Source: Fibrobacteria bacterium
GTDB taxonomy: Bacteria; Fibrobacterota; Fibrobacteria; UBA11236
Length of the DNA: 63,144 bases
Reading direction: 5' to 3'
Assembly (NCBI GenBank): GCA_041746255.1
Contig: JBGTHM010000090.1
Location: 1-63,144, forward strand
The position numbers and the translations under genes are program-made. The notes beneath the pieces are model-generated. The model did not search any database, was not told the origin of the DNA, and worked only from the letters and a program-made list of their open reading frames with translations. This document shows positions 8,176 to 30,266 of this stretch, one piece after another (position 1 is the first letter of the stretch; each line of letters begins with the position of its first letter).

Positions 8176-9390
8176 TCATTTCTGGATTATTCCTTTTATG
8201 CCTAAAATATACTTATAAAGACGGGTATATATACGATATAGAAGTACTCTGAAACCACTCGGACGCTTTACCCCATCGGTATAACTGGTCTTTGATGAAT
8301 TCAGCAGGCGATAAAATTTAAGTATGTGATTTTGCTTTTTAATTTCTTCATACGAGCATGCGTTCTTTCGTATGCTCGACCTAAAATCTTCCAACAATGA
8401 TTCACTTGGCTGCATAATCCTTTCATAAGCCCCTGAATTTCCATGCTCACGGAACAGCAAAATCTCCTCCAAGGACTCAAGGTAAAGATATTCTTGCGTT
8501 CGAACGCCCCATAAATCATGATAACTTCCTAAACTCGGAACGAAAATCGAGTGGTCCTCCAAGGTTACGCTCCGGCCCGTCTGCATATTTAATAAGGAAA
8601 CTCCGTCCAACTCACCGGCAATGGGCGTCTCCAAGAGCTCTCCCATGGTCGGAAACACATCAATTATAGATGTAATCTCGGATATTATTTTAATATCTTG
8701 ATCGCCTTTTTTATGGACGAACATTACAATTTTGCTTCGATCATCGTTCAGTAAATATGTTTTTCGAGCCCAATTGGGATCATCCAGCAATTTACACCCA
8801 TGGTCCGAAAACAAAAAAATGTAATCGAATTTTTCTATGTCAAAGGTGCGGAATATTCTATCCAAGCCATTGGATAAATGATGATTTCCCCTGGCATCGG
8901 CTATGGCATGGGCATTATAATCGTTCACACAGTCATGGTAGTCCGTAAGATTTAGGAATATAAATATTTTTTCTTCTTGTATTATGGATGGACCGTCTTC
9001 AAGTAAGGCTGAAGTCGATTCGAAATTTTTCCATTTGCATTTGATATTTTCGGGAAATATCCCTACCTCTATGTCGCTATTGGTCAGATTGGAAATCAAA
9101 TTGTAGTTATTGGTTGCAAGCAGATCGAATACGGTTTCGCAATCGTCTTTCAAATAGTATCTTGGCCACTGAATTCGCTTTTCGCAACCGTTATTCTTAG
9201 GATAAAGCCCTGTGTAGAGACAAGCCAAGCTACGTGGAGTATCGGGTGCGGGAGAGTAGCAATTGGTATATGCAACGCCTCCCATTCTATCCATCCAATG
9301 ATCCATTGGAGTAACCTTATGGATATCCGGATTGAACGTCTTTAATCGATTCGCGCGCAGCATATCGCAAAAAAGAAATAATATTTTCAT
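8176..9390 (-). CDS. Sulfatase/alkaline-phosphatase superfamily hydrolase or transferase (Thr at the nucleophile position)
   Basis: ILFLFCDMLRA, APDTPRSLACLYTGLYP, FLFSDHG, SIIDVFPT, LDGVSL. Confidence 0.8.
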   Translation of the reverse strand: MKILFLFCDMLRANRLKTFNPDIHKVTPMDHWMDRMGGVAYTNCYSPAPDTPRSLACLYTGLYPKNNGCEKRIQWPRYYLKDDCETVFDLLATNNYNLISNLTNSDIEVGIFPENIKCKWKNFESTSALLEDGPSIIQEEKIFIFLNLTDYHDCVNDYNAHAIADARGNHHLSNGLDRIFRTFDIEKFDYIFLFSDHGCKLLDDPNWARKTYLLNDDRSKIVMFVHKKGDQDIKIISEITSIIDVFPTMGELLETPIAGELDGVSLLNMQTGRSVTLEDHSIFVPSLGSYHDLWGVRTQEYLYLESLEEILLFREHGNSGAYERIMQPSESLLEDFRSSIRKNACSYEEIKKQNHILKFYRLLNSSKTSYTDGVKRPSGFRVLLYRIYTRLYKYILGIKGIIQK

Positions 9391-9428
9391 TCTATCTCCC
9401 CCACGAACCTCTCCCTACTAAACGATTA

Positions 9429-10103
9429 TCATGGCCTTCTGCATTGTAATCCGAAACTTCTTTCAAACTGATATGCTCGTTCCGGACGGAGAAACATTTT
9501 ATTGTCACAGGCATTAAACCGAAAGGACTCAACATCAACGAACCCATGATCCGAAAGCGCCTTCGCCAACGAATATCTGTCCCACATCCAACGATGGACC
9601 GCATTCCCGAATAGATCGGAGATCAACCGGAGCATACTTTTATTCCGATTAGGCAACCCCAATAACGTTCCCTTCAAGAATTTTATCGATGCTTCTGCTT
9701 TGATCTTCAATTTATCAGGGTCCATTGGTTCCGAATGGATCTCGGAAACAGCATTTACATATTCCTTTGCATAGGCTTCCAGGTCAGGAAGAATGCATCG
9801 AAACATCCCACCAGGCTTGAGGATTCGGAAGGTATTTTTAATGGCTGTATGACATTCTTCCAATGATATGTGTTCTAAAATGTGTGAGCAAAAAACGCCA
9901 TCGGCGCACTCGTTCGCAAGGGGAAGCCCGCGAACAATATCACCATATCGGACGGCATCGTCGAATGTACAATTCAAAAAGGGCCTTAGGATTCTCCCCA
10001 CCAACGCGATTTTTTGGATGCGTAATGTCGGGGAGGCATCGAAATTAATCCATCCCTCCGGCGCCTCAGTGCCACATCCGTATTGCACATAGATATTTTT
10101 CAT
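9429..10103 (-). CDS. Methyltransferase domain protein (Methyltransf_11-like)
   Basis: YVQYGCG, GWINFD, FCSHILEH, ILKPGGMFRCILPDL, HRWMWD. Confidence 0.82.
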   Translation of the reverse strand: MKNIYVQYGCGTEAPEGWINFDASPTLRIQKIALVGRILRPFLNCTFDDAVRYGDIVRGLPLANECADGVFCSHILEHISLEECHTAIKNTFRILKPGGMFRCILPDLEAYAKEYVNAVSEIHSEPMDPDKLKIKAEASIKFLKGTLLGLPNRNKSMLRLISDLFGNAVHRWMWDRYSLAKALSDHGFVDVESFRFNACDNKMFLRPERAYQFERSFGLQCRRP

Positions 10104-10124
10104 GAATCGGCGAATCCTCTTTTT

Positions 10125-11180
10125 TTAATCAAGTATCGACAAAAAACTGGCGGCGGATATTTGAGGCGTTATTTTTTGTCCGGCTCCATGTGCTTCTTGC
10201 GACATAGAAAAAAGCTCGGCGTCCGTAGTCTCTATAATTTGCAACATCCTTCGTCTAAGATCGTTGCAATCTCCGGACTTGAAAATATAACCGTTAAGTT
10301 TCTGGGTGACAAAGTAAGGGGCCGCCCCACAAACATCCGAACAAATTATGGGCAGGCCAGCAGCCGCAAACTCATGCAAAACAACTCCCCATGGTTCGTC
10401 GCGACTAGGGAGCACAAAACATCCCGAATGTCCCACTTCATCGATTAGATTCTCAGGTTGCATGAAATCCATTACCGCGATGTCACGATTCCCTCTTAAA
10501 TAAGCCCCCAAGGATCCGTTTCCGATAAGGCGCAATTCCCAATTCTTCCGCACGTTTTCCAATTCGGACCAAGCTTCTAATAAAAGGTCTACCCCTTTGA
10601 CCGTTTCGTACCTTCCAACGAACAAAAAACGGTGTGGATACTTTTTCGATTTCACGTCCCTGAACGAGGAATGAGCGGCATTAAACAATTCCAAATCCGC
10701 GCTATAACAATTGAATATTATTTGCGGCTTTTTAAACCCTATGTTCCTGGCGAACTCGTATTGATAAGGACCTGTTACCCATGCGTGGCTGAAAAAGCTG
10801 CCCAACAACAACGGCCCCGAGACCGATGCCGTCATCTGCCTTAAAGTACCTTTCCATTGATCATCAAAACCGGCTACTACAGGTATTCGCTTTTTCCTGA
10901 GTGACCTTGCTACGCTTAAATAGTCCCTATCTTGCCAACCAGATATGAAAACTAAATCGGGAGAAATGTCTTCGGCTATTGCATGCAAGTCCTTTCTGTT
11001 GCATTCAGATCGGTTGTAATACCTTAAACGATCGATTACGGGAGGTTTATATGGTGTCAATTTCTTATGATCCCAATGAACAACATGTACCTCCGCACCA
11101 TACCTTTGGGTATATTCCCGAAGGATTGGAATTTGGTAGCCCATTAGCTCTGTGTACATGTATAGAATTTTCAAAGCCAT
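10125..11180 (-). CDS. Glycosyltransferase family 4
   Basis: FLFVGR, KGVDLL, FVLPSRDEPWGVVLHEFAAAGLP. Confidence 0.9.
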   Translation of the reverse strand: MALKILYMYTELMGYQIPILREYTQRYGAEVHVVHWDHKKLTPYKPPVIDRLRYYNRSECNRKDLHAIAEDISPDLVFISGWQDRDYLSVARSLRKKRIPVVAGFDDQWKGTLRQMTASVSGPLLLGSFFSHAWVTGPYQYEFARNIGFKKPQIIFNCYSADLELFNAAHSSFRDVKSKKYPHRFLFVGRYETVKGVDLLLEAWSELENVRKNWELRLIGNGSLGAYLRGNRDIAVMDFMQPENLIDEVGHSGCFVLPSRDEPWGVVLHEFAAAGLPIICSDVCGAAPYFVTQKLNGYIFKSGDCNDLRRRMLQIIETTDAELFSMSQEAHGAGQKITPQISAASFLSILD

Positions 11181-11214
11181 TCTTTTTTTCCAGTTGTCAA
11201 CGTTTCATCGTCGC

Positions 11215-12276
11215 TTAATCGATTGTGCATTCGACCTTTATTGCGTTAATAAACTGGCTTGCACGGCTTTCGACATCGTGTCCATCTGACCATACTCGTT
11301 TCATTCCGGCTTTTGCGATGTTTTCGGAAATTTCTGGGTTACTAATCAACCATTGGACTTTTTTTATCAATTCATCACAGGATGAAAAATAACATGCCTC
11401 TTTGTTTTCTTCGAACATTTCCCCCAAATCATCCGTACGTTCGGCTAGCATCAATCGACCACACGCAGGGATTTCGAAACAACGTCTTGTATATGTGTCC
11501 CGATTCAGCTTTGAAAAAAAAGCCAGACAGATTTTTGCTCCACAAAGGGCTTTGGCATAGGAATCATCTTCAGCCCTGCGGATTTCTCCGAAATATGAGC
11601 TTAGATCGCCTAGTACGTCTTTCCTCCAATACTCGTCTCCGAAAAGCCTGACCCTGAATCCTGATTCAACCAGCGCCCTTAAATACTTGACGCGCCCATC
11701 CGGTTCATAGTGTCCAATAAAAACCACATCGCATTCATAGTTTTTTCTTTCGATTGGAGACAGATCGACAGGGCGGTCCTTCCACGGGACGAAATAAGGT
11801 TTCAAAACCGAAGCATTTCTTGCGCCGTAATCAACGGCCTCCATTACATTAACCTTCCGAAAAAAGAAATTTATTCGATATCGCCTAATACCTTTTAAAT
11901 ACCAATGCCATAGTAAGTGATGGTGCCAAGGTACGTTTACATGGTTTTTCGGGCCGAAGGGGTCATCATTATTGTATGAAACCGTTGTTATTCCCATGCG
12001 ATTCATTTCACGAATCGTCCGGGGATGGATATGTGTCCCCCTCCAAATTAAGGCGACATCGGGTTTCTCGGCTTTGGCCTTTTTCAGAATGGATTTGTTT
12101 AATTTGATCAATGCGGGTCCAGGAACGGGAATCGCTTCCTGTATCCTCCCAAACTTCCCATCGAAAAAGGTTGCGAAGGAAAATTTAATTACCTGCCATC
12201 CCTGTCCCGCCAGGGCCTGTCCAAAGGCTTCTTCGTAAATCATCCACCGCCAATTGCCGGCCAGAAGGATTTTCAT
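11215..12276 (-). CDS. Glycosyltransferase (CgeB/Glyco_trans_1_2 type)
   Basis: DVVFIGHYE, TRRCFEIPACG, GHDV; start set at ATG 12276 (ATGA overlap). Confidence 0.85.
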   Translation of the reverse strand: MKILLAGNWRWMIYEEAFGQALAGQGWQVIKFSFATFFDGKFGRIQEAIPVPGPALIKLNKSILKKAKAEKPDVALIWRGTHIHPRTIREMNRMGITTVSYNNDDPFGPKNHVNVPWHHHLLWHWYLKGIRRYRINFFFRKVNVMEAVDYGARNASVLKPYFVPWKDRPVDLSPIERKNYECDVVFIGHYEPDGRVKYLRALVESGFRVRLFGDEYWRKDVLGDLSSYFGEIRRAEDDSYAKALCGAKICLAFFSKLNRDTYTRRCFEIPACGRLMLAERTDDLGEMFEENKEACYFSSCDELIKKVQWLISNPEISENIAKAGMKRVWSDGHDVESRASQFINAIKVECTID

Positions 12277-13163
12277 AATTTTATCCACTCTTCCGGAATT
12301 AATCCATCGAAGCCCCAGGATCCCGCTCCCTTATCGATTTGCATGCCTGGCGTTACCACCAGCTTGTTGCAATAATTACCCAACCAAGCCCCCCACCAAC
12401 TAAAGGTGCTGTTTGCCGTAATAAAGTGTTTGCACTGGCTCATCAGCCATAGGTCCATATTGGCATCCCGATCTCCACTATTTTGGTCTACGAATATAGT
12501 TCGATCGGGAGGCAGCGTTATTTTGGATCGAGTCAAGGGATAATCGTCGGAGAATACAAAATATCGAGGTTTTTCAAGTTGATTTTCCATTAATTCAAAT
12601 GCCTTGCGATAATATTCGAGAGGTGCATTTTTGGCCGGACCTTGAGTAAGGCCTCCATCAAACCACCGAACATGCACAGCCACCGAATCCGAACAATGGA
12701 TTTTTTCGGCAAATTTCAAGTCAGCCCTATTGTTGGGAGGAATCATTTGTAAATCTTCACGAATTTCCCGTCCTACATCCTTAAAATACCTTTCGCTTTG
12801 CCAATATCCCTCCAAGTGCAACGTCCCATTTACTTTTACCGAAAGTAACCGAAGATCGAACGCGCGACCCTCCTGTTCTATAAACCATCTGCGGCTGTAC
12901 GGCAATCTTCTATTCCAAATCCTAGCAAAACCTCTTCGTAATTTGGGAAATGGCTCAAATCTTTCCCTCGGAGTCGCTTTACGACAAGAAATATTGAACC
13001 GATCCATCTGATAGCTTCTACGGTAAGCATAATCTTCGGCAAAACCACTCACGTCATCCAAAACCAATTCGGCATTCTGTACCAACGACAACCTTCGAGC
13101 TGCGGCGTAACAAAAAAGCTGGTTACCCAATCCACCGAAAATGCGGGCGACTATTTTTTTCAT
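12273..13163 (-). CDS. Alpha-1,2-fucosyltransferase (GT11)
   Basis: GGLGNQLFCYA, GYWQSERYF, VAVHVR, FVFSDD, ITANSTFSWWGAWL. Confidence 0.92.
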   Translation of the reverse strand: MKKIVARIFGGLGNQLFCYAAARRLSLVQNAELVLDDVSGFAEDYAYRRSYQMDRFNISCRKATPRERFEPFPKLRRGFARIWNRRLPYSRRWFIEQEGRAFDLRLLSVKVNGTLHLEGYWQSERYFKDVGREIREDLQMIPPNNRADLKFAEKIHCSDSVAVHVRWFDGGLTQGPAKNAPLEYYRKAFELMENQLEKPRYFVFSDDYPLTRSKITLPPDRTIFVDQNSGDRDANMDLWLMSQCKHFITANSTFSWWGAWLGNYCNKLVVTPGMQIDKGAGSWGFDGLIPEEWIKL

Positions 13164-14638
13164 ATTAGTTTATATCCAAAGTAAAATATTATTCCTAGCG
13201 CTAAACTACCGTACCAGAGCGCCGTCACTTTGGAAATCAAGGCCTTGGAACCGGAAATGAATCCGAGCCAGGCACATCCCGCCAGAAGGATCGTACACAT
13301 CAACCGATAACGTTCATGAATAATGATATTTCCTCCGGCAACAGCAATGAACGTCACCCAATAACTTATGTGAAAAATAAGGGGGCCCGCATTGCGATAT
13401 CTGTTTTTAAAGGCATGTATCAGCCCAGATAAAACATATGGAACCATTCCGATATTGATTAAGCTTGATGATGCCACCATTAACCATTGCCAAGCGCTCA
13501 TGCTACCCTGGAAAAAATCCGAAACGGTTGGGATAATTTTTGGCAATGGCGCAATCAGGTACAATACCATCCGAGGCAATGTGAAAATCATCCCTTGCCA
13601 GGCTGATTCGGGAGCAAGCAATAGCCCTATTGATTGGTCAGACCATTCCTGGTGCATGGCGGCATTTTCCTGGAATGAAACAACTTGACCTAATAGTTTA
13701 AGATAATCCAATTCGTACCCGCCCGTCAGGGTTTGTAGCGTAGGCCCAGCGAACAGCAATACCAATGCCAAACACAGCAAAACAACTTTGGGCAATGTTT
13801 TGGAACTCCCGGATGAACGCAACATTATCGCCATTACGACCATCGATATAACAGTCGGTATTACCATGCTTGTACGCACTATAGCGATAATCAATATTGA
13901 TAAACAAACTGTCAAAACCGTTTTCACCAACGATACCTCAACCGTTTTCCCAATGTAACGGCCGCTTGCAATCATCGCAACCAGGATGAAAACGGCGGAA
14001 AATGTTTCTCGAGACGTCAATACGTCAAACCAAATTATTTCTGGGAATAATAAAACAAATGACAGCGTCCAGTCCCTAGGTCCGACTTTTTCCCGGATTT
14101 CGTAACCAACCTTGATGAGAAATAGTATTCCACAAAGCGTAACGAAGCTATTTATCAAAGCGGGTCCAAAAGGATTGTGTCCGAACATATAAAATATGCC
14201 CGCATAATAATACAGGATTCCCTGGTAATTGGATCCCAATTCTGGGATCCAATTATTTTCAATAAGAGCTTTTGCCTGGTAGTAATAGCGCATTGGATCA
14301 TATCCGATGATATAATCTCTTTCAAAAGGAATTAAATCCGGTATCCATCCAACATGAATCAGGAAATGCGTCATTGCCAATTTGATGATCCAGAAGTACC
14401 CGAGAATAGCAAGTTTGGGATCTTCCAGTTTCACCTGCAGGCTACGGCATAGGATTAAGCCCATTATCGCGACAAGGGCGTTAAGGAAAATTAATCTTTC
14501 CATCTCATTATATGCGGAAATCAAGATTGAAATTCCACCCAGACATAACAACAACCCCGCCAGCGCTATTTGGCCGGAATCCAACCTACGTACTTGTTCC
14601 ACCGGGCTGGTCGAAAATTTAATGGTTATTTCCGTCAT
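13160..14638 (-). CDS. Polytopic membrane protein, probable Wzy polymerase or GT-C enzyme
   Basis: About 11 or more hydrophobic segments, D..RYY loop, C-terminal ERYR motif; located in a Wzx/Wzz locus. Confidence 0.6.
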   Translation of the reverse strand: MTEITIKFSTSPVEQVRRLDSGQIALAGLLLCLGGISILISAYNEMERLIFLNALVAIMGLILCRSLQVKLEDPKLAILGYFWIIKLAMTHFLIHVGWIPDLIPFERDYIIGYDPMRYYYQAKALIENNWIPELGSNYQGILYYYAGIFYMFGHNPFGPALINSFVTLCGILFLIKVGYEIREKVGPRDWTLSFVLLFPEIIWFDVLTSRETFSAVFILVAMIASGRYIGKTVEVSLVKTVLTVCLSILIIAIVRTSMVIPTVISMVVMAIMLRSSGSSKTLPKVVLLCLALVLLFAGPTLQTLTGGYELDYLKLLGQVVSFQENAAMHQEWSDQSIGLLLAPESAWQGMIFTLPRMVLYLIAPLPKIIPTVSDFFQGSMSAWQWLMVASSSLINIGMVPYVLSGLIHAFKNRYRNAGPLIFHISYWVTFIAVAGGNIIIHERYRLMCTILLAGCAWLGFISGSKALISKVTALWYGSLALGIIFYFGYKLI

Positions 14639-14676: not shown

Positions 14677-15954
14677 TCACCGCTTCGCATGTCTATATTC
14701 TTGCATCCAATTATTGTCAACGAGATGACTTACCAACTTTTCGATTGCTTCGTCCGGGGAAAATTCCGTAGTGTTTATCTCAATGTTAGGTATCCCGTAT
14801 TGACTTAAGATTTTCCGATAATGTCCTATCATGGCTGATATCTGGTGCGGACTTAACTCTTCCGGTTTGCGCTTATATATGAAGTTAGGGTTTCCTACGC
14901 ATAAGATTACATAACGGGGCTTTGGAAAAAATTTTAAAAATAATAATTCGTTTGCGAAAATAGGCTTTCTAAAAAAGACGTCGCAACCATACCTATCGCA
15001 AAAAACAACCCCGCCGCTCCCACAAAACCAATTGTGTCTCCAAAGTCGCTCCAACAAATCCAAGTAGCAGATTATTTTCCATATAATCCGCCCTGTCATC
15101 CCGATTGGGTTCCAGGCTTGAAACTTTATACTTAAATAAGTCGCAACCTTCATCGGTAGTTTTAGAATCGACCGCATTTCCGACGGTTTCGAAGGCCCCA
15201 TATACTGGACGCGAATGGAAGGCCATTGAATTTGGTTTAGCGACGATATCAACGTGCTTTTTCCCGCACCATCCGGGCCCAGAAAAACTATTGCTCGCGG
15301 GACGCGGATCAAGCTTTTAATTCTCCTTGTAATTCTTTTCAGGATAGGTGTCGGCGTATCATCTTTTTTTCCGAACGCATGTCGGATTTTTTCAATAACC
15401 TTCCGCTCGCTCATCTCACCGTTTTTAAAGTCAGTGACTAAACCCCACAATCTATCCACTGATATCGGCATAAATGAATCGAACTTCTGCCTTTTAATAA
15501 TTTCCTCTTTATCGATTTTGAAATACTTTTCTGCATATTTATGTTCAAATCTATTTTTATTAATAGATGCGTGTAAGGCATATAAAACCGCCTCGTCTGC
15601 CGGAAGGAGATAGAGGATTCCCCCCTCACGCTCTCGACCTGATTGAAATAAATATCCTATCATCTCGTCTGATATTTTCACATTCCCGAATGAAAGGCTT
15701 TCCTGAACATCTAAATGCAACCATTTATTTTCGGATCGAATGAACTTGATGTAACCATTTGAGGTCGGCCTGGAATGAAACCCCAATGACCGCAGCTTTT
15801 TCCTCCATTCGGGCGAATTCCACACCAGGATGTCAATATCCCCTGCTTGCTCCCATGAAGTCGGCTCTCTAAGTATGACAAATTTAATCCCGCCCTGAAC
15901 GAGCTCCCGCAACAAATTTAATACTGTGGGTCCGGCGACTTGTGTCATCGTCAT
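14677..15954 (-). CDS. Fusion of a nucleotidyltransferase-like domain and a thymidylate/NMP kinase-like domain
   Basis: N-terminal FVILR...GDIDILV...LHLDV; C-terminal FLGPDGAGKST P-loop, CDRY, FPKP, KRKPEE. Confidence 0.75.
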   Translation of the reverse strand: MTMTQVAGPTVLNLLRELVQGGIKFVILREPTSWEQAGDIDILVWNSPEWRKKLRSLGFHSRPTSNGYIKFIRSENKWLHLDVQESLSFGNVKISDEMIGYLFQSGREREGGILYLLPADEAVLYALHASINKNRFEHKYAEKYFKIDKEEIIKRQKFDSFMPISVDRLWGLVTDFKNGEMSERKVIEKIRHAFGKKDDTPTPILKRITRRIKSLIRVPRAIVFLGPDGAGKSTLISSLNQIQWPSIRVQYMGPSKPSEMRSILKLPMKVATYLSIKFQAWNPIGMTGRIIWKIICYLDLLERLWRHNWFCGSGGVVFCDRYGCDVFFRKPIFANELLFLKFFPKPRYVILCVGNPNFIYKRKPEELSPHQISAMIGHYRKILSQYGIPNIEINTTEFSPDEAIEKLVSHLVDNNWMQEYRHAKR

Positions 15955-16490
15955 TTACTGGTTTTCTCAAAGCTATTTTTGATAGTAAGTCTGTAATTGG
16001 ATAGTAATATTTTGCGTTTATCTTTGATGGCTGATCCGATTCTTTCAATCCCCCTCCTTATAATATTTTTCCTGAACCTTACTACCGCCACCATTACATG
16101 GGTGTCACCTCTTGCGGCAAGTATGGAAATTCGATGCGACCCGTCCAACACATTCCAAGATGGACTGAACGACAAGTTTCTTCTTTTAATTACCAGAGGT
16201 CGTCCTTCACTTTCGTCGTATCCGTTTGTCATGATTGAATTTAAAAGTTTCTCAAATCCGTGTTCATCCAGATGGTGTTGATTTCTTGTATTATAGTGCG
16301 AATAACTCATGTACCCATGCATAGGTTGCACCGGGGAACCCACTATTCGATTTTTGATGAATTGGTAATGTGGAGTTTCTGCAACAGGGACAAATTTCCC
16401 ACCTTTTCCCGGGACTGGAGATGTCAACTTTATGTACAAACGAAATATTTCCACGGTTCTATGTTCGATTATTTGGAACGCCTCGAACAA
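15951..16490 (-). CDS. ParB/Sulfiredoxin-like domain protein
   Basis: FEKLLNSIMTNGY...PLVI...VLDGSHRISIL; no HTH domain. Confidence 0.7.
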   Translation of the reverse strand: MFEAFQIIEHRTVEIFRLYIKLTSPVPGKGGKFVPVAETPHYQFIKNRIVGSPVQPMHGYMSYSHYNTRNQHHLDEHGFEKLLNSIMTNGYDESEGRPLVIKRRNLSFSPSWNVLDGSHRISILAARGDTHVMVAVVRFRKNIIRRGIERIGSAIKDKRKILLSNYRLTIKNSFEKTSK

Positions 16491-16576: not shown

Positions 16577-17914
16577 TCAGCTTGGTTTCATTTCTTTTCG
16601 TTTCCTTATTTTGGTGTGCTGGCTACGAAATACGGTCATTATCCAAAAGATCCTGATAATCCCATGCAATACAGACGCTACCACAACTCCTTCCAATCCT
16701 TTCCAATAAGCGCCTGCCAAAATTAATGCCATACCTATCAGATACGAAATGTTATTCGGTAAAATCAGAGTATTCACGGTTTTTTCCGCCTGTAATACGA
16801 TTGTCAAGAATCGAGATCCTTCGTACAACACTGCAGACAGTACCATTCCAGGAAGCAAATATGAAATTTGGGAATATTCCTTTGCTACCAATAACGAAAA
16901 TATGAATTCATGAAGAAAATACGAAGCAAGCACGGCAGCCAATAACAACGTTAAGGCTATCGACATGATTCTCCATCCTAAAATAAACACAGCATCAACA
17001 CGCACCATATCCATTGCATCCCCTACTCGCTGAAAATATATGGGGGCCAGTAGTGTAGTAACCATTCCAATCACAATTGAAATCGGATAATTTCCTAATT
17101 GGAACAATACGGCATACAAGCCCACATCTTCGGTTGATGAAAAAAACTCAAGACCCCACCGATCCGCCGCGGTCTTACTCCATCCCAATATGCCCCATGT
17201 TGCAAAGGGCCACGAATATTCATATATGCGCCCCTTCCATCGGTCTCTTATTTTTGAATCCATAGGTTTGCCGGCTTGTTCCGACTTTGTGATTCGCCTG
17301 AAAAATATATATTGTGACGGCAAGACTAGGAACATTGCCAATGCATAGCCGACCATGGCAATCAGGCTACTTGCCCCCAGCCATAATATCAGACCTGCCG
17401 CGATTAGGAACCGGCCCCAGGTAGCGAGTGCCTGATGCAGCGCCACTACCGCTCTTTGCCGGGCAGCATTTTGGATACCGTTCAATATGTTATTGTAACC
17501 GGTAATGATCGATAAAGCCACTCCAGCCAATCCAATCAGCGCCCATTGCGATAGGTCGGTTAACGACAGACCTATCGCAATCGGAATCGAACACGCCAGA
17601 ATAATTTTTGTAATGTTTATTGCCGTTTGGCGAACGGCCCCAAAATAGATGCGCAACTCCTTTGATTCCCTAGCAGGCGCGAAAAATCTTGTTGCCCCAT
17701 TACTTAGCGGGCCCAGCACCACCCAATGTATAAGAGTTGCCGCTGTCATTCCCAACGCCAGCTGCCCGTATTCCACTGGAGACAATAGTTCTGTCAGAAT
17801 TTTTATTCCAACCAACGATCCCACTACTGTCATGACTTGACCAAGGGCTATCCAACTGAACTCCTTTCCAAGTCGTGCATATCTATCCCGTTTGACTAAT
17901 TCGAATAACCGCAA
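16577..17914 (-). CDS. wzx: Wzx flippase (MOP superfamily)
   Basis: About 12 TM segments; LLSPVEYGQLA, DRWGL...EDVGLYA. Confidence 0.88.
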   Translation of the reverse strand: MRLFELVKRDRYARLGKEFSWIALGQVMTVVGSLVGIKILTELLSPVEYGQLALGMTAATLIHWVVLGPLSNGATRFFAPARESKELRIYFGAVRQTAINITKIILACSIPIAIGLSLTDLSQWALIGLAGVALSIITGYNNILNGIQNAARQRAVVALHQALATWGRFLIAAGLILWLGASSLIAMVGYALAMFLVLPSQYIFFRRITKSEQAGKPMDSKIRDRWKGRIYEYSWPFATWGILGWSKTAADRWGLEFFSSTEDVGLYAVLFQLGNYPISIVIGMVTTLLAPIYFQRVGDAMDMVRVDAVFILGWRIMSIALTLLLAAVLASYFLHEFIFSLLVAKEYSQISYLLPGMVLSAVLYEGSRFLTIVLQAEKTVNTLILPNNISYLIGMALILAGAYWKGLEGVVVASVLHGIIRIFWIMTVFRSQHTKIRKRKEMKPS

Positions 17915-18167: not shown

Positions 18168-18590
18168 TCATTCCGATTCCTTTTTTTCCATACTTTCAGC
18201 TACCGCTTTCAGAACCCTGCTCCGCAACAAATTGCTGCTCACACCCTTCGTGCGAGGTAGAATCAACAGGCGCTCCAGGGGAATGGGGTTGGAATTGTCG
18301 TGGCCATGAATCAACAAGTCTATGCCATGGTCATCCAGAAATTTTATATCGATCATCCATTTGGAGGGCACAACTTCATCGACATGCTTCATTGCTTCCA
18401 GTACCTCCTTTCTTTCGGAATAAGAAAGTTCGGGAGCATACCCCTTTTTCAACCGTATTTCTTCATCGGTAGTCAAGGCCACTACAACATCTCCAAGTTT
18501 TTTAGCCGCTTTTAATATTCGAACATGGCCGTGGTGGATTAATGTCGCAGACATGTCAACCATAATCCTTTTATTTTTTGTCGTTTCCAT
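18168..18590 (-). CDS. Standalone HxGH cytidylyltransferase (glycerol-3-phosphate cytidylyltransferase-like)
   Basis: HHGHVRIL, VVVALTTD, ERKEVL, HGHD, RTKGVSS. Confidence 0.9.
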   Translation of the reverse strand: METTKNKRIMVDMSATLIHHGHVRILKAAKKLGDVVVALTTDEEIRLKKGYAPELSYSERKEVLEAMKHVDEVVPSKWMIDIKFLDDHGIDLLIHGHDNSNPIPLERLLILPRTKGVSSNLLRSRVLKAVAESMEKKESE

Positions 18591-18596
18591 AAATAA

Positions 18597-19607
18597 TTAG
18601 TTGTTTTCATCCCCATTTGAAGGTAATACCACTTCATTCAAGATTTCACCCCGTGCATTCTTTCCAAGGTGAACTTCTCCTAGATGGCACACAACGCTTC
18701 CGTCGAATTCGCCGCGTGGCATGTAGGGAATAGAACGTGAATCTTTAAAAGAAATTTTGCCTTTTATTTGCGTACATAACTGCGGCTGATTTTTTTCAGG
18801 AACCGTTATCCAATCAGAAGCTTTTGCAATAAAGCTTCTCTTATTTTCAAATACAGCTTGTTTTAATTCTTCATGCTTGGGTAGCACCTCAACCAAGGAA
18901 GCAATAGCGTGGTAAGGTCCGGTCATCGATTTATCCAAATGTGTTTGAAGTCGAAGGTAAAATGAATCGACTTCCACCGTAGGAGGATTGTTAAATGCCA
19001 CAAAACCAGCCCCCGTTAAACCGAACAAACCCTTGCAGGAACTATATCCGATAACATCTGCTATCTCATGGCCTTTTTCAAGACCTATTGACGCAGTGGC
19101 GTCCAGCATCAATCGTGCACTAGTACGATTTGCCAAGGCTGCCAATGCCTCGATTTCCAGCTTTATCCCCCGACTTGTCTCCGTATAACAGGCTAAAATC
19201 CAATCGAAACGGCCCCATAAATTATTGATTTCCCTCCAATCCGCAGTTACTATCTCTTTTATTTGCTTTTTTTGGCGCAAAGCAGAGTTTGCCAAAAAAT
19301 GTAGGCGATCGGAATAATATCCCGTGGATACCACAAGAACACGTCCATACAAAAAATTTAGCGCCATTATTTCCAGCGCTAGGCTTGCGGAACCCTGAAA
19401 ACGAGCGATGTTACCATGGCCACTCATGCTTTTCAGAGCTGCCAGAACCCTTTCTTCTACTTGATCGTAGTCAGAATCTCCGCGTCCAAAGCACGGCCGC
19501 AAACCTATGATATTTTCACACAACAAACTCGCTGGGCCGGGGGTAAAAAGAAGTTTTCCTCCGTTTCTATCTCGGACCAGCTCTTCTATCGTTTTGCTGC
19601 TATCCAT
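18597..19607 (-). CDS. Class V PLP aminotransferase, AEP-transaminase-like (divergent)
   Basis: LLFTPGP, QGSAS, GYYSDRL, TETSRG, LDATASIG, PLP lysine in SSCKGLFG; directly downstream of ppd. Confidence 0.8.
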   Translation of the reverse strand: MDSSKTIEELVRDRNGGKLLFTPGPASLLCENIIGLRPCFGRGDSDYDQVEERVLAALKSMSGHGNIARFQGSASLALEIMALNFLYGRVLVVSTGYYSDRLHFLANSALRQKKQIKEIVTADWREINNLWGRFDWILACYTETSRGIKLEIEALAALANRTSARLMLDATASIGLEKGHEIADVIGYSSCKGLFGLTGAGFVAFNNPPTVEVDSFYLRLQTHLDKSMTGPYHAIASLVEVLPKHEELKQAVFENKRSFIAKASDWITVPEKNQPQLCTQIKGKISFKDSRSIPYMPRGEFDGSVVCHLGEVHLGKNARGEILNEVVLPSNGDENN

Positions 19608-20745
19608 TGGTCTCCTGAAGAAATTCCATGAATTCCTTTTTATTTTGCGATGGTTTGCGATCTGGACGACCTAGGTTTTTTCGAGCCCCCTTTTTGCATT
19701 TGATTTCCAAAAAACTGCTCCCCCTTTTCGCCATCATCGTGCTTACACTATTCTTTATACCTTCGATAGTTTGGGCACACGCTACCTGGGTATATCCGCA
19801 GGCCGCCGCAATTTTGCAAAAATCTACGACGGCTCCTTTGGTCGGTTGGCCTCCGACCGAATCATGGCAGGCATTGTTTATTACGACATGCAACAAATTG
19901 GGACAATCGGCACTTACAGCCATTCCCCCCATATGCATCAATATCGCACCATCTCCATCAAGGCATACGACCTGTTGTTCGGGCCTTGTGTAAGCAATTC
20001 CAGCAGCAATCTGGTTAGCATGACCCATACCCCCGACCGTCAAAAAATCCCTGTGATGTCCGGTATCATCTGCCTTCCGCATTTCGAAAAGCTCCCTTGA
20101 AGCCATTCCGGTGGTCGAAACAATGCATACCTGCTCCGGTAACCCTTTTACAACCGCATGAATGGCCGCCTCTCTCGTTAACCCCGTTCCCATTTCCTCA
20201 GTATTTCCAGTCTTGAATGGCATGAATGTCCCCGATCTTATTAATAGGGCAACTGGCCTCGATTCCATGGTTGCCTTTTTAACCATTTCCCTCATAGTTG
20301 GTTCAATTATTTTCATGCTTCCATCAATTACTCGATAGGGTATGTTTAATATTTTTAATTGTGCTTCTGTGATTTTTCCCTGTTGAATATGCTGAGGTTC
20401 GTCGTGTGCCTGCTGCCCATCGAGTCTAATCTCCCCCCGCCACCCTACCATAAGTACCATCGGAACAGCATAGACTTGTGAGTCAGCAAGGGACGTCAGC
20501 GGATTGATAACATTCCCTAAACCGGAGTTCTGCATGTAAACCAATGCGGGTTTCCCTGAGGCGAGATAATGTCCGATAGCTAGTGCAGTCGCGGAACCTT
20601 CATTTGTGGCAATGATATGCCTATTCGCCGGTAGGTGCTCTGAAATACAAGCACAAACATCCTTTAGAAGGGAGTCGGGTATTCCGGTTACAAATTTTAT
20701 GTCCAAACTTTCCATACAGGAAAGAAATTCCATTGGATCGATCAT
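19600..20745 (-). CDS. aepY: Phosphonopyruvate decarboxylase
   Basis: TGIPDSLLK, NEGSA, YMQNSGLGN, DEPQH, STTGMASRELFE, DFLTVGGMGH, DGDGA, HDSVGGQPT. Confidence 0.95.
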   Translation of the reverse strand: MIDPMEFLSCMESLDIKFVTGIPDSLLKDVCACISEHLPANRHIIATNEGSATALAIGHYLASGKPALVYMQNSGLGNVINPLTSLADSQVYAVPMVLMVGWRGEIRLDGQQAHDEPQHIQQGKITEAQLKILNIPYRVIDGSMKIIEPTMREMVKKATMESRPVALLIRSGTFMPFKTGNTEEMGTGLTREAAIHAVVKGLPEQVCIVSTTGMASRELFEMRKADDTGHHRDFLTVGGMGHANQIAAGIAYTRPEQQVVCLDGDGAILMHMGGMAVSADCPNLLHVVINNACHDSVGGQPTKGAVVDFCKIAAACGYTQVACAQTIEGIKNSVSTMMAKRGSSFLEIKCKKGARKNLGRPDRKPSQNKKEFMEFLQETNG

Positions 20746-22043
20746 TTCATTGTACCCGGTATCAACTCCAATATTTCCTGAATCCCCATCAACTGCGAAT
20801 CCACCTCCGCGGAACGCCCATTCAGCAATATTGCTTGGGCCACCTTTCGCATAGCCGGATATGCGGCCCTCAATAAATGGTTTGCATAAATCACAATATT
20901 GAAACCATTTTCAGAGAGCATATTTTCCGTCGCCGTGTTATAACTGGTCGGCACGCATACAAGGGGCAAGTCTGGAAAACTCTTGCGAAATATTCGGGAA
21001 AATTCGAATACTTCGTCCGGATCCTTCCTTCGACTATGGATCATAATCCCATCCGCTCCAGCCTGTGCATATGCCTCAGACCGTTTGATAGCGTCCTTCA
21101 TTCCCTTTTCTAAAATAAGACTCTCTACACGCGCTATTATCATAAAGTCTTCACTTACGCGACTAGCGCGTCCGGCTTTTATTTTTTCACAAAACGACTG
21201 CATGTCTTCCTGGCTTTGGTCAACAGAATTTCCTAACAGGGAGTTCTTTTTCAAACCATTCTTATCCTCGATTATAACGGCAGAAATTCCCAACCGCTCC
21301 ATTGTCCTGACATTTAGTTCGAAATGTTCGTGCTTTCCTCCGGTATCTCCGTCTATTATCATCGGCTTGGTCGTCACCTCGAATATGTCATTCACATTCG
21401 ACAATCTACTGCTTATATCCAACGCTTCGATGTCCGGTTTCCCCTTAGCTGTGGAATCCGTAAGGGAGCTGGACCAGAATCCATCGAACTGCCGAATCTT
21501 TCCTTCCACTTGCACCTCCGCGTTTTCGGCGATAAGCGCCGAAATAGGATTGTGCGCCTCGATAAGCCGCAACATAGGTTTGGCATATAACAGCCGCTTC
21601 AACATTTTCCGTCGAATATCAGGAGTCGTACCGATTTCCTGCAATCGATTGGCTAATCCATTTGAAGAAACTCCCTTTGTATATGGAATTTCGATCAACT
21701 TTCCACCATACTCCGAAAGAGCTTTTATGGCTCTTTCGCGATATGGTGCCAGCGGACCCTCCAGCCAATCATCCCCATGGATCATATACTCCGGCCGGTA
21801 TTTGGTAATAGTGGGAGCATAATCCCACTCCTCCTGTGGTACCACTCGAGAAACTCCCGCGATGTTTTCGACGATTTTTTTACGATGCTCAAAGAGCAAG
21901 TGGGGCAGTCTCTTGTGATCCGCTATGGCCGAGTCCGTAAGCAACCCAACCAAAATATCGCCGTATGACCGGGCTTTTTCGATTATATTTATATGCCCAT
22001 GATGTAGGATATCCACTGTCATTCCGATATAGATCGTTGTCAT
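20742..22043 (-). CDS. aepX: Phosphoenolpyruvate mutase with N-terminal cytidylyltransferase domain
   Basis: PepM signature EDKX5NS (EDKNGLKKNS), DGDTGG, IARVES; N-terminal DILHHGH, HGDDW, YTKGVSS. Confidence 0.96.
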   Translation of the reverse strand: MTTIYIGMTVDILHHGHINIIEKARSYGDILVGLLTDSAIADHKRLPHLLFEHRKKIVENIAGVSRVVPQEEWDYAPTITKYRPEYMIHGDDWLEGPLAPYRERAIKALSEYGGKLIEIPYTKGVSSNGLANRLQEIGTTPDIRRKMLKRLLYAKPMLRLIEAHNPISALIAENAEVQVEGKIRQFDGFWSSSLTDSTAKGKPDIEALDISSRLSNVNDIFEVTTKPMIIDGDTGGKHEHFELNVRTMERLGISAVIIEDKNGLKKNSLLGNSVDQSQEDMQSFCEKIKAGRASRVSEDFMIIARVESLILEKGMKDAIKRSEAYAQAGADGIMIHSRRKDPDEVFEFSRIFRKSFPDLPLVCVPTSYNTATENMLSENGFNIVIYANHLLRAAYPAMRKVAQAILLNGRSAEVDSQLMGIQEILELIPGTMK

Positions 22044-22088: not shown

Positions 22089-23036
22089 TTATCTCCGGCG
22101 GGCAATATTTTTCTGCAATGCAACCACGCTTTTCCTGCCTATGGTAACCGAAAGGGAAGCCATTAATCCGATCATAAATGAAAATATCGCGATTTCTTTT
22201 CTCTTCGGCTTTGATCTTTCGTGGGGGACAACCGCTTCTTCCAATATTTCAAATGCTCGAGTACTTATCAACATCGATTTTTCGATCTCAAATCCAATCA
22301 TGTTGAGTATTTTTTCTCTTAGAGTGGGGTCCAAGGTATTTTTCAGCTGCCTTTCCAAATACTCCCTGTTTAGCTCGGAATCGCTTATAACATCTCCCCT
22401 TATTTTGTCATTCAGTGCTTTCAGGTAATAATCCACGATTTGTTTCGCTAGCGTAGAGTCGTGGGCATTCACTTCTACTCGGATTATTCCCCTTTTAGAA
22501 TCAACGGAAACGGCCAGCATTTTTTGTCTCAATAGTCTTACACCCTGTCTTTGAGTAGGGATTTTCGACGGGTCTCGAACATTCCATGAACTATCGGTCT
22601 TGTTCCACACTTCAGGAAAAAGTGCTGGCAGGAGGTTGTTTCCAGAAATAACCTCCTTCGCCAATTCATTGCCTTTCAATATGATCTCAATTTTATCAAG
22701 ATTGGTATTTCCGAATCCAAGCTGGGAAGCCACGATACCGCCCATGCCCCCCAATTGGGAAAACAGTCTGGATGCATCATTCCCTTTTCCCGCTTCCTTT
22801 AAGGCGATGATCGCCTGGGTTTGGTATACCGGTGGAGCCAGAAACGCATATACCAATCCCATTAATGTTGAAATGGCCGTAATGATTAAAATCCAAAATC
22901 GGTGTTTCCATACGGTAAGCAGGAGTTCCACGAAATCAATATCCGTTTCGCGCACACCATGCATGGAAGTGTTAGACGCCTCCCGAGAGCCGACTTGTTC
23001 CGATTGCACCTTTGCTGATTCGCTATCGCCAATCAT
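22089..23036 (-). CDS. wzz: Wzz/polysaccharide co-polymerase (chain-length regulator)
   Basis: IDFVELLLTVWK, TM1 followed by PPVY, coiled region, Pro-rich SKPKR then TM2. Confidence 0.88.
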   Translation of the reverse strand: MIGDSESAKVQSEQVGSREASNTSMHGVRETDIDFVELLLTVWKHRFWILIITAISTLMGLVYAFLAPPVYQTQAIIALKEAGKGNDASRLFSQLGGMGGIVASQLGFGNTNLDKIEIILKGNELAKEVISGNNLLPALFPEVWNKTDSSWNVRDPSKIPTQRQGVRLLRQKMLAVSVDSKRGIIRVEVNAHDSTLAKQIVDYYLKALNDKIRGDVISDSELNREYLERQLKNTLDPTLREKILNMIGFEIEKSMLISTRAFEILEEAVVPHERSKPKRKEIAIFSFMIGLMASLSVTIGRKSVVALQKNIARRR

Positions 23037-26020: not shown

Positions 26021-27166
26021 TTAGGGGAGCCCTTGCAGCAATTCCGGAAGTCCTTGGAGCAATTCCTCCATCGGCCAAATTTCGACTCCTTCCGTATACA
26101 TGCGGCGTGTGCCGCCATAAGCCAGAAAGAGCCTGGCCATGGGGTAATCCCTTGCGAATGCCGCCAATCCCCCGAGCGACTCGGGCTTCACCCTTTTTCC
26201 TCGTTTGACCTCAAAAGCGAGGATCCCTTTTGGCCCATAGAGTACGAAATCCACTTCTGTTTGATTGGAAGTTCTCCAATAATGGACTTTATAGCCCAAG
26301 TGCAGGGAGTCGTTAACCGCCACCAGGTTCTGCAATAGCAGGGTTTCAAAAGCGGGACCTTCCGCTTCTTCGGGGGTATCGAGAGGGCCGGCCGGTCGGA
26401 GCGTTCGATAAATCCCAACGTCGAAAAAATAGAATTTCGGGTGTAGTGCCAGGCGCCGCTTCGATCGTCTGGTGAAGGGAGGTATGCGCTGGGCGATCAT
26501 CAAATCATCCAGGATCCCGAAATAGCCTTCCGCCACCTTCCGGTTGACGCCGCATTCCGAGGCCACGGCCGAAATGTTCAACAGGCTGCCTTGGGAAAAG
26601 CTGGCCGCCTCCAGAAACCGGGCGAAAGCCGAAAGATTCCGGGTAAGACCTTCTTGTCTGATTTCCTCCTCCAAGTAGGTTTTTACATAGGATTCCAGAA
26701 ATTTTCCCGGATTGGGTTCCTCACCCAATGCCGGCAATAGCCCCTGTCTGAGCGCGCGCCCCAAATCGAAATCCCTGCCGATTTCCACAGCCGTCAACGG
26801 ATGCATGGCATAGGTCAAAGCCCGTCCGGCCAGCAGGTTCGTGCCTTGGCGCCGCAGTTTGCGGGCGCTTGAGCCGGTCAGGACGAATTTGAGGCGCTTA
26901 CTTTCCATCAATCGGTGGACTTCGTCCAGGAGCGCGGGAACCTTTTGGATTTCGTCTATGACAATGAAATCTGAAAATCGGGGAGGGATGAAGTTTTCCA
27001 GACGCTGGGGATTGGCGAGAAGATCGTTGAAAATCTCGGCCTCCAATAAATCCACATATACGGCCCCTGGAAAAGTATTTCTCACCCAAGTGGTCTTACC
27101 GGTGCCTCTTGGCCCAAACAGGAAGAAGCTCTTGTTTTCGGGAGGCTTAAGCAATCTGGAGTACAT
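26021..27166 (-). CDS. AAA+ ATPase (AAA_14 + DUF4143) with C-terminal nuclease-like fold
   Basis: GPRGTGKT, IVIDEIQK, LTGSSA, LAGRA, KFYFFDVG, YWRT...EVDFV...FEVK. Confidence 0.9.
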   Translation of the reverse strand: MYSRLLKPPENKSFFLFGPRGTGKTTWVRNTFPGAVYVDLLEAEIFNDLLANPQRLENFIPPRFSDFIVIDEIQKVPALLDEVHRLMESKRLKFVLTGSSARKLRRQGTNLLAGRALTYAMHPLTAVEIGRDFDLGRALRQGLLPALGEEPNPGKFLESYVKTYLEEEIRQEGLTRNLSAFARFLEAASFSQGSLLNISAVASECGVNRKVAEGYFGILDDLMIAQRIPPFTRRSKRRLALHPKFYFFDVGIYRTLRPAGPLDTPEEAEGPAFETLLLQNLVAVNDSLHLGYKVHYWRTSNQTEVDFVLYGPKGILAFEVKRGKRVKPESLGGLAAFARDYPMARLFLAYGGTRRMYTEGVEIWPMEELLQGLPELLQGLP

Positions 27167-29524: not shown

Positions 29525-30266
29525 GGATTTCTTTCAGGTTCATAATCTCATCCTTCCGACCCGACAGGAGCCATTCTTCGGCAATCTCAATGTCGAACTC
29601 GCTATGAAAATCCCGACCGGTCACCCAATTTCGGATAATCGGAAAACTGTTCTTTCCCATCCACCACCAGGGATTAGGGCCCAGGCGCGTAAAAGCGCAC
29701 CCATGGCGAAAGGTCCACACTCCCTGATCATAGTAATACACCGGCGGATAGGCCTGGCGCGAAGTGGTGCATTCGATTTGCATAAAAGACTCGAGATACC
29801 CCCGGTCGTTCAAGCGAAGCGCCCGATAGGGATGATCGTCCTGGGCCTGCCATACGCTCATCACCGAATCCATATCCGACCGCGCTTCCAGAATTTGTAG
29901 ACTGAGGTCGATGAGCCCCCCGGATACCATCACAGTGTTGCCCAATAATACCGTCACGCAATTCAGGTCGGGCATGCGATCCCGTATTTTCAGCACCCCA
30001 TGCTGGATGACATCTCCATGGTTGGCATCGGGCAAGGCTAATTCGTCGGGTCGGTCGATAACCTCGCACCCCAGGCTCAAAGCCAGGTCGCTGATGTGGG
30101 AGTCTTCGGTCGATACATAGACCTTGGCAATACGCTCGGCCGCTTGCGCGGCCTCGATAACATGCTGCAAACTCGGCTTACCGGCCACCAGGGCCAGATT
30201 TTTATCGGCAATACTTTGGTTATTTCCCCGGGCGGTGATAAGGGCGGCATGGAGGGAAGCAGCCAT
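29511..30266 (-). CDS. Acylneuraminate/Kdo cytidylyltransferase family protein (NeuA-like)
   Basis: ALITARGNNQSIADKNL, VYVSTED, IDRPDELA; ATG 30266 overlaps the vapC stop (TAATG). Confidence 0.8.
   Translation of the reverse strand: MAASLHAALITARGNNQSIADKNLALVAGKPSLQHVIEAAQAAERIAKVYVSTEDSHISDLALSLGCEVIDRPDELALPDANHGDVIQHGVLKIRDRMPDLNCVTVLLGNTVMVSGGLIDLSLQILEARSDMDSVMSVWQAQDDHPYRALRLNDRGYLESFMQIECTTSRQAYPPVYYYDQGVWTFRHGCAFTRLGPNPWWWMGKNSFPIIRNWVTGRDFHSEFDIEIAEEWLLSGRKDEIMNLKEIHGIC

Follow-up and report, generated by a model that had tools for sequence, protein, structure and literature searches.

What is the role of a protein that joins a nucleotidyltransferase to a kinase and is encoded within a polysaccharide gene cluster? 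The question is raised by a gene at positions 14677-15954, on the minus strand, of a 63,144-nucleotide contig (JBGTHM010000090.1) from the assembly of a Fibrobacteria bacterium (GCA_041746255.1). This whole stretch of DNA is referred to as the window. The gene encodes a protein of 425 amino acids (P0001). An earlier sequence-only reading of the window proposed that the N-terminal domain of this protein, as a LicD-like enzyme, attaches a phosphonate activated by cytidine monophosphate (CMP) to the glycan and that the kinase domain removes the CMP. The folds, the family, and the neighbourhoods of the protein are better explained in another way. Tentatively, it appears to be a Wzx-coupled phospho-decoration enzyme that is dependent on adenosine triphosphate (ATP) and acts on a lipid-linked repeat unit, the kinase first and the nucleotidyltransferase second.

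Domain architecture

The open reading frame (ORF), its homologues, and an AlphaFold2 model (pLDDT 87.9, pTM 0.81) point to a fusion of a nucleotidyltransferase (NTase) and a kinase with the fold of thymidylate kinase (Tmk). The plus-strand frame of 14677-15954 was rejected, as it has stops throughout. All of the following features are on the minus strand. The N-terminal domain, approximately residues 1-200 (15355-15954), is predicted to be a Pol-beta-type NTase core with a helical bundle, similar to PF14907, and reaches a pLDDT of 92.7 when modelled alone. It contains GDIDIL (residues 38-43, 15826-15843), by conservation the putative DxD metal-binding motif of the NTase. It also contains LHLDV (residues 79-83, 15706-15720), in which D82, on the neighbouring strand of the predicted model (77-84), would be the third carboxylate. 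The C-terminal domain, approximately residues 219-425 (14680-15300), is a P-loop kinase of the Tmk fold according to Foldseek and VIA structural searches. Its Walker A motif, or P-loop, is GPDGAGKST (residues 226-234, 15253-15279). DRY (residues 320-322, 14989-14997) is at the end of strand 3 and is followed by an invariant D325. The pair R362-K363 (14866-14871), after strand 4, may act as a short basic "lid" and is aligned to the RKP(D/E) of three Escherichia coli proteins, YghR, YghS, and YghT.

The four motifs GDIDIL, LHLDV, GPDGAGKST, and DRY had already been named in the sequence-only reading. They were all found in P0001, are conserved across its homologues, and are not due to chance. 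In an alignment of 23 sequences the P-loop (G226, P227, D228, G229, G231, K232, and T234), K133, D320, R321, D325, P346, R362, and K363 are invariant, with D39 and D41 conserved to at least 90%. When the number of sequences is raised to 51, D41 is invariant and conservation is at least 90% at each of R29, D39, W78, D82, and K133. Judging from the model, P0001 is a genuine two-domain enzyme architecture in which the two active sites look intact. For this reason it is taken to be a truly bifunctional enzyme.

The best match of the N-terminal domain in the VIA search was MenT1 (Z 11.2, 158 residues aligned). ANT(2'') (8.5), TglT (8.1), TM1012 (7.9), LnuA (7.7), and MenT4 (7.0) were also matched. 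Foldseek gave weak NTase matches, headed by ANT(2'') entries (5cfs/4xje), with ANT(2'')-Ia at an expectation value (E) of 2.1e-3, and including JHP933, poly(A) polymerases, and MenT1. No bacterial LicD structure is present in these match lists; FKRP is present, with a VIA Z of 4.7 (6kaj, rank 18) and a Foldseek E of 0.053 (rank 16, TMq 0.17). LicD (PF04991) is not among the five Pfam families that match P0001 at E≤0.1, and it is not among the 25 of 35 Pfam families that are listed for the 23 aligned family members. PF14907 (NTP_transf_5) matches 13 of these 23 members (best E 1.7e-8). The orthologues from two loci, L002 and L009, score 40 and 35.4 bits, respectively, with a cut-off of 31.2. 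P0001 itself has no PF14907 match at E≤0.1, and its membership, as read from sequence, holds through homology to the members that do. The earlier view that the protein combines a Pol-beta-type NTase bearing a DxD motif with a Tmk fold therefore agrees with the predicted model. The specific kinship with LicD does not, and "LicD-like" holds at the superfamily level only.

Tmk is the nearest structural relative of the C-terminal domain. Every top Foldseek match is a Tmk, the best being 4nzy_A (E 9.8e-6, TM on target 0.66). The VIA list begins with six Tmk entries, from 2plr (Z 16.2) down to 7fgq (Z 13.8), and these scores are one to three units above those of other nucleoside monophosphate (NMP) or nucleoside kinases. 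The alignment to 2plr, the S. tokodaii ST1543 Tmk, covers 181 residues with a root-mean-square deviation of 3.0 and 20% identity. NadR (12.9) and adenylate kinase (12.8) come next. No cytidylate kinase (Cmk) is among the top 50 VIA matches, although a list of this length does not prove that there is none. In the comparison with LicD/FKRP and with Tmk and Cmk, Tmk is near, FKRP scores low, and Cmk is outside these 50 matches.

At the level of sequence the kinase half is divergent. P0001 matches neither PF02223 nor PF02224 at E≤0.1, nor any Tmk model of NCBIfam at E≤0.01, and PF02223 weakly matches 6 of the 23 relatives (best E 7.9e-6). When the PDB was searched with either P0001 or the family profile, mostly P-loop matches to ABC ATPases were obtained, and only 2axp and 2plr covered more of the domain. 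When the family was aligned to the genome's own Tmk with hhalign, the P-loop alone was aligned. Read by eye, the segment after DRY is C-D-V-F-F-R-K-P in P0001 and G-W-S-T-L-A-Y-Q-G in that Tmk. The host genome (4.59 Mb, 100% complete by marker genes) encodes a separate Tmk and a separate Cmk, the latter being its single PF02224 match (contig C73). A second PF02223 match, on contig C14, was rejected as a paralogue, as it is an HPPK-dNK fusion. By analogy with other P-loop kinases, the general base for a hydroxyl acceptor could be D325, which is invariant and located five residues beyond D320.

Family size and distribution

Besides the query entry, 22 proteins were returned by a word-indexed search, with a best E of 9e-138 for P0001. 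Nineteen of these are 405-433 amino acids in length, with 92-97% query coverage. When the family profile was searched against 1.84 billion cluster representatives, 8180, 3261, and 303 were matched at E≤1e-3, E≤1e-10, and E≤1e-30, respectively, and most of the best 150 matches are 400-470 amino acids and aligned end to end. The architecture thus defines a large family, rather than being a single chance fusion. It had been stated earlier that no characterised enzyme with this architecture was known, and none was found here. The Atlas clusters of the family are all labelled "hypothetical protein", and no printed functional study of the NTase-Tmk fusion architecture was found in the literature searched. 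The folds are already known, and database entries of the family carry the names "hypothetical protein", PF14907, or YghR/S/T.

Close relatives are scarce. At E≤1e-20, 1 of 296 genomes from the phylum of the window has a match, and at E≤1e-40 so do 1 of 401 genomes sampled around that of L002 and 1 of 400 around that of L001; in each case this is the seed genome only. The orthologue at L001 (L128, G296:C35:37311-38564) was flagged in the genome search with one in-frame TAA within the match, and the ORF listing shows an intact 426 amino acids from a GTG start. From the sequence, this TAA is probably just upstream of the true start.

In the window, a stretch from about 3 to 23 kb has a guanine plus cytosine (GC) content of 40-46%, compared to 50-57% in the flanks. 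It covers the whole phosphonoglycan cluster, and all of its genes are on the minus strand. This low-GC island and the lack of close relatives in the 295 other genomes of the phylum fit horizontal acquisition. They would also suit a MenT/AbiEii-like NTase toxin or defence module within a variable polysaccharide island, as would the patchy distribution (1/296, 1/401, and 1/400 genomes) and the structural match to MenT1, with TglT and MenT4 also listed. However, PADLOC gives P-loop scraps only (E 0.003-0.0095), there is no antitoxin-like partner, the neighbourhoods are those of glycan biosynthesis throughout, and the family includes fusions to glycosyltransferases and to Wzx. All seven matches to the family in viral contigs are P-loop-only, and none is a full-length relative. 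A toxin or defence function is hardly credible for this protein.

Association with Wzx and glycan biosynthesis

A total of 38 genome and 68 metagenome loci were gathered, and their ORFs were scored with profiles built from sequences of this analysis. Neighbourhoods were counted over the 66 loci with a full two-domain match, the window included, and 50 of these have at least 1.5 kb of upstream sequence. In 16 loci a same-strand Wzx gene is found no more than 2 kb upstream (directly adjacent in 9), and in 7 others it is directly downstream. The association of the family with Wzx is thus real but partial. In 12 loci a gene for an APH kinase adjoins or overlaps the family gene, and a further 6 loci have one within 2 kb. 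Sixteen neighbourhoods, from Gammaproteobacteria, Planctomycetota, Actinomycetota, Methanosarcinales, and Nanoarchaeota, were annotated with Pfam, and glycan-biosynthesis genes are present in all of them.

Members of the family are also fused to proteins of these pathways. Fusions to Wzx/MatE (P0058, P0074, and P0166), to GT4 (P0061 and P0151), to GT9 (P0074 and P0088), and to APH kinase (P0139, P0141, and P0166, ~1250 amino acids) were found. In actinomycete relatives the NTase, Tmk-like, and APH kinase parts are either in one tri-domain protein (P0139, P0141, and P0166) or adjacent (L004, L005, L007, L009, and L012). These genes adjoin a FemAB-like GNAT and a double GT2, and form a distinct conserved cassette.

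Relatives of the kinase half are present in E. coli K-12. YghR (E 1.9e-11), YghS (1.4e-10), and YghT (2.2e-10) match positions 221-395 of the family profile in hmmsearch, and the neighbouring YghQ matches the Wzx profile at E 2.2e-23. IS5 abuts yghQ in this strain, and may truncate it. Together, yghQ and yghR/S/T (L126; NC_000913.3, 3131341-3134823) look like the remnant of a glycan cassette in K-12.

From the adjacency and fusion to Wzx and to glycosyltransferases, the best-supported view is that the protein of the window acts at the cytoplasmic face on, or for, the substrate of Wzx. The same evidence could be read differently. A flippase accessory with no part in tailoring, that is, a nucleotide-binding or hydrolysing module that regulates or energises Wzx, would also be adjacent to Wzx, could be fused to its cytoplasmic end, and could occur as YghR/S/T do with YghQ. 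A pseudokinase domain fused to mycobacterial MviN/MurJ offers an analogy. Regulators often lose their catalytic sites, though, and here both are fully conserved, including DRY/D325 and the triad of the NTase. Some of the fusions to GT4, GT9, and APH do not involve Wzx, and 43 of the 66 loci have no Wzx within 2 kb. An accessory role of this kind is very unlikely.

Six loci with DNA are closest to that of the window, namely the window itself, L001, L002, L043, L044, and L045. L001 and L002, which hold the two closest genome-resolved homologues, keep the cassette of a small ORF, the fusion gene, a membrane protein, and a GT11. GT11 orthologues are found downstream in L001 and L002 (50-54% identity) and in L044 (30%). 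At the position of the membrane protein, L001 and L002 have a protein of 417-437 amino acids with no Pfam match, and L044 has a 410-amino-acid ORF after the GT11. No sequence similarity was detectable among the membrane-position proteins of the window, L001, L002, and L044.

The upstream partner

The small ORF of this cassette is located at 15951-16490 (minus strand) in the window. It encodes 179 (or 167) amino acids with a predicted ParB/Srx fold, contains the sequence DGSHR, and is SbnI-like. Its stop overlaps the start of the fusion gene (ATGA). A homologue is directly upstream of the fusion gene in all six of the closest loci.

The partner has no Pfam or NCBIfam match, and a single-sequence search for its homologues returned only itself, so that a profile was needed. 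A profile of 50 sequences matches SbnI (6nr6, E 1.4e-5; 5ujd, 1.9e-5; 5uje, 2.7e-4). About 50 residues align, and the match spans the P-I-L-V...DG-x-HR...A-L-G region. D116, G117, H119, and R120 are invariant in the partner family. Of the relatives, one has the NCBI name ParB/RepB/Spo0J and one has PF02195, and an Atlas cluster is labelled "ParB/Sulfiredoxin". The profile search of this family gave 94 proteins at E≤0.01. For eight of the 94, the longest contig is equal in length to that of a homologue of the fusion protein, which suggests, without proving it, that the two genes are on one contig. The SbnI-like protein is an obligate genetic partner of the fusion protein in the close subfamily. 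From its profile match, it is probably a further kinase or a nucleotide-binding subunit.

Proposed function

How might these parts work together? In the favoured reading, the kinase half would place phosphate from ATP on the substrate before flipping. The NTase half, through its DxD/D metal site, would then cap or extend that phosphate, or a hydroxyl, with the group for capping coming from a nucleotide-activated donor. The role of an additional kinase, or of a partner that binds nucleotides, would fall to the SbnI-like protein, or to APH in other subfamilies. The order of kinase and then NTase is proposed by analogy with PsmK and PsmN. In the biosynthesis of the lasso peptide pseudomycoidin, as described in PMC6993621, PsmK phosphorylates and PsmN then adds a hexose onto that phosphate. 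PsmN is, in that account, an uncharacterised NTase for which Phyre2 indicates similarity to ANT(2'') (5cfs/4xje), and its DxD double mutant was inactive (PMC6993621).

A wider proposal, possible if rather doubtful, is that the SbnI-like protein and the NTase-Tmk fusion make up a pathway of three activities, not described before, that serves Wzx-dependent glycans of both bacteria and archaea and is the equivalent of PsmK/PsmN for polysaccharides. Such a pathway would phosphorylate the lipid-linked repeat unit and cap this phosphate, and so build phosphodiester- or pyrophosphate-linked substituents. The donor at this locus could possibly be CMP-2-aminoethylphosphonate (CMP-AEP).

Several points weigh against a phospho-decoration enzyme coupled to Wzx. 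Its substrate and its chemistry are inferred for the whole family. Wzx was found within 2 kb in only 23 of the 66 loci, where many contigs are short and the Wzx profile is home-made. A Tmk-type site normally takes a phosphate monoester, i.e., an NMP, rather than a hydroxyl. Among the closest structural matches to the NTase half are tRNA-modifying toxins. PsmN is a presumed member of PF14907. Lastly, genes for 2-aminoethylphosphonate (AEP) are adjacent in two of the six closest loci, which is more than would be expected without any link.

The same three parts could instead serve to make a donor. In such a donor-synthesis module the partner would phosphorylate a small alcohol, the NTase would make its nucleoside diphosphate (NDP) or NMP form, the P-loop kinase would add a phosphate, and a separate transferase would use the product. 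Parallels are the adenosine 5'-phosphosulfate (APS) kinase in 3'-phosphoadenosine 5'-phosphosulfate (PAPS) synthase and Cj1415 in the Campylobacter pathway for O-methyl phosphoramidate (MeOPN). Three nucleotide-dependent modules of a phosphotransfer type are always together, and the partner alternates between SbnI-like and APH-type, both of which are families of small-molecule kinases. In addition, a gene read by eye as HprK-like is at the position of the partner in L029, a locus from a Limnocylindrales metagenome-assembled genome (MAG). Against this, the kinase fold is nearest to Tmk, the APS-kinase domain of PAPS synthase reaching just Z 9.5 in VIA. The existence of fusions to Wzx and to glycosyltransferases is more in keeping with an enzyme that acts on the glycan, and no dedicated transferase was identified. 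NTases of the Pol-beta type are not known to make NDP-alcohols. Synthesis of a donor is considered unlikely.

Phosphonates and CMP

The window does possess a complete AEP pathway, which is on the same strand and 2.2-6 kb upstream of the fusion gene. A PntC-type cytidylyltransferase fused to phosphoenolpyruvate (PEP) mutase (Ppm) is at 20742-22043 (minus strand; TIGR02320, 416.6 bits, cut-off 319.55). The phosphonopyruvate decarboxylase (Ppd) is at 19600-20745 (minus strand; TIGR03297, 458.5 bits, cut-off 312.5). These are followed by a divergent PhnW/AepZ-like aminotransferase at 18597-19607 (minus strand; PhnW-AepZ, 55.9 bits, below cut-off).

It is therefore reasonable to ask whether the NTase half is an AEP transferase, analogous to LicD, that uses CMP-AEP, the Tmk-like domain rephosphorylating or sequestering the CMP. 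The NTase fold and the DxD motif belong to the superfamily of LicD and FKRP, and FKRP is detectable (Z 4.7; E 0.053). The earlier statement that no canonical LicD is visible in the window can be extended, as PF04991 has no match in the whole 4.59-Mb genome. There is no other obvious AEP transferase in the cluster, and LicD-like genes are the presumed transferases of AEP or phosphocholine in phosphonoglycan loci as these are described in PMC6697681.

Two other loci of the family have phosphonate genes nearby. L043, a 2.8-kb contig, carries a PhnW/AepZ-like gene, 53% identical to that of the window and convergent with the module. L029 has, at 8641-13849, genes for a Wzx-like protein, the HprK-like protein, a stand-alone kinase, a 2-hydroxyacid dehydrogenase, Ppm, and an ATP-grasp-like protein. 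The stand-alone kinase has 247 amino acids, is the Tmk-like domain of the family without the NTase, and is 1 kb from Ppm. This gene order may correspond to the "GCF 540" type described in PMC8942020.

However, the link does not hold across the family. Ppm or Ppd is beside only 1 of the 66 full-length loci, and this is the window itself. By close loci, AEP genes are linked in two of the six (the window and L043), clearly unlinked in three, and one locus is too short. No phosphonate genes are within about 10 kb of L001 and L002, and no cytidylyltransferase was found around L002 among Pfam matches at E≤1e-5. The whole assemblies that hold L001 and L002, which are MAGs of unstated completeness, have no PEP mutase above the TIGR02320 cut-off; the best TIGR02320 score in G296, which holds L001, is 91 bits, and G297 has no match. 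PF13714 was rejected as a marker for Ppm, as it is present in 11 of 14 control genomes, and TIGR02320 was used instead. The two PF13714 matches of G296 have the isocitrate-lyase/PrpB-type signature EDQ...KRCGH or 24% identity. The family therefore occurs independently of phosphonate genes.

A 1.2-Mb Nanoarchaeia genome (G300), which carries the family locus L016, has a PntC-Ppm fusion and a Ppd that are 49% and 47% identical, respectively, to those of the window. These are on contig C11 (L113/L118), separate from the contig of the family member. The Ppm of G300 was rejected as a case of adjacency, being on this different 21-kb contig.

The domains themselves also speak against AEP transfer. 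The NTase half resembles MenT, ANT, and LnuA much more than it does FKRP, and it has no PF04991 match. No Cmk is among the top 50 structural matches of the kinase half, and with a separate Tmk and Cmk in the genome there is no need for a private CMP kinase. The locus itself encodes another candidate for the transferase. A soluble protein of 404 amino acids at 8176-9390 (minus strand) belongs to the sulfatase/alkaline-phosphatase superfamily (PF00884, E 2.7e-10), with weak matches to the PehA and arylsulfatase models of NCBIfam as well. Sulfatases occur in some of the AEP neighbourhoods described in PMC8942020.

Taken together, the neighbourhoods have no consistent link to CDP- or CMP-donor pathways, and transfer from CMP-AEP with recycling of CMP, as first proposed, is unsupported. 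It is unlikely as the function of the family, and the protein probably tailors surface glycans in general. For this locus, in a genome without LicD, it is a live minority hypothesis, though on balance an improbable one.

Other genes of the window

The fusion gene is part of a longer cluster, all on the minus strand. Upstream of the AEP genes are a 931-amino-acid ORF at 23082-25877, which is Wza-like by position and sequence, and a Wzz at 22089-23036. The AEP genes (18168-22043) include a second small cytidylyltransferase of 140 amino acids at 18168-18590, which is TagD-like (PF01467; TIGR01518, E 2.6e-18, below cut-off). Between the AEP genes and the partner is a Wzx-type flippase at 16577-17914 (PF01943, E 8.9e-13). 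Directly downstream of the fusion gene, at 13160-14638, is a polytopic membrane protein of 492 amino acids, which is Wzy-like by position. The fusion gene had been placed between wzx and a Wzy-like gene. These are its neighbours, with the partner ORF intervening on the side of wzx. As for the label, a membrane protein is encoded at 13160-14638; it has no Pfam match, and Wzy is a putative identity. A GT11-family glycosyltransferase follows at 12273-13163 (Pfam E 5e-19). Downstream of this are glycosyltransferases, a methyltransferase, the sulfatase-family protein, an Asn-synthase-like enzyme, and a WbuX/HisH/HisF trio.

There is a second polysaccharide locus at 33034-59564, which does not contain an NTase-kinase gene. 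It includes a Wza-like exporter (34814-37150), an Fcl-like epimerase (37171-38106), Wzx (38294-39577), a PGA_cap protein (40986-42110), a Wzy_C protein (53732-54970), Wzi (56999-58489), and Gmd (58515-59564). An AAA_14/DUF4143 ATPase (26021-27166, minus strand) and a PIN-domain protein (30266-30670, minus strand) are encoded between the two loci. An AAA_14/DUF4143 gene also flanks the family locus L014.

Significance

The antigenicity of bacterial surfaces, their sensitivity to phages, and their recognition by the immune system are shaped by phosphate-linked decorations, among them AEP, phosphocholine, phosphoethanolamine, and sugar phosphates. With hundreds of 50%-identity clusters across bacteria and archaea, the family is one of the larger parts of Wzx/Wzy gene clusters that still lack an assigned function. 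If its chemistry were established, a gap that recurs in the annotation of polysaccharide loci would be closed, and a new route to phosphodiester substituents could come to light. In this LicD-less genome the fusion protein is one of two candidate AEP transferases. If the three-activity pathway is real and its donor here is CMP-AEP, the NTase half would be a LicD-independent phosphonate transferase, and the attachment of AEP in organisms that lack LicD would be explained.

Comparison with known systems

The C-terminal domain shares with Tmk (PF02223 / TIGR00041) the fold, a P-loop with an aspartate (GxDGxGKST), the DRY motif, and a putative basic lid. Unlike Tmk, P0001 has a short lid, is fused to an NTase, and is encoded in a glycan locus. 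LicD, fukutin, and FKRP (PF04991) share the superfamily fold of Pol-beta NTases and the DxD motif with the N-terminal domain, whereas most loci of the family are without a CDP- or CMP-donor pathway. The partner shares the ParB/Srx fold with the free-serine kinases SbnI and SerK, as indicated by its profile match, and is shorter, with 167-179 amino acids compared to about 250 for SbnI.

YghR, YghS, and YghT (b2984-b2986), annotated as "putative ATP-binding proteins", are beside YghQ (b2983), and their homology to the kinase half extends beyond the P-loop. They share with it G-x-DG-x-GKSTL, Y(M/L)G, a helical insert, DR(Y/F)P, and RKP(D/E). They differ in that they are stand-alone proteins of 230-252 amino acids, without an NTase domain and without an SbnI-like partner.

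PsmN, as far as it is described in PMC6993621, differs from the NTase half in that its substrate is a peptide and its kinase is HprK-type and a separate protein. By the same description, it resembles the NTase half in being ANT(2'')-like and in acting after a kinase, on the phosphate.

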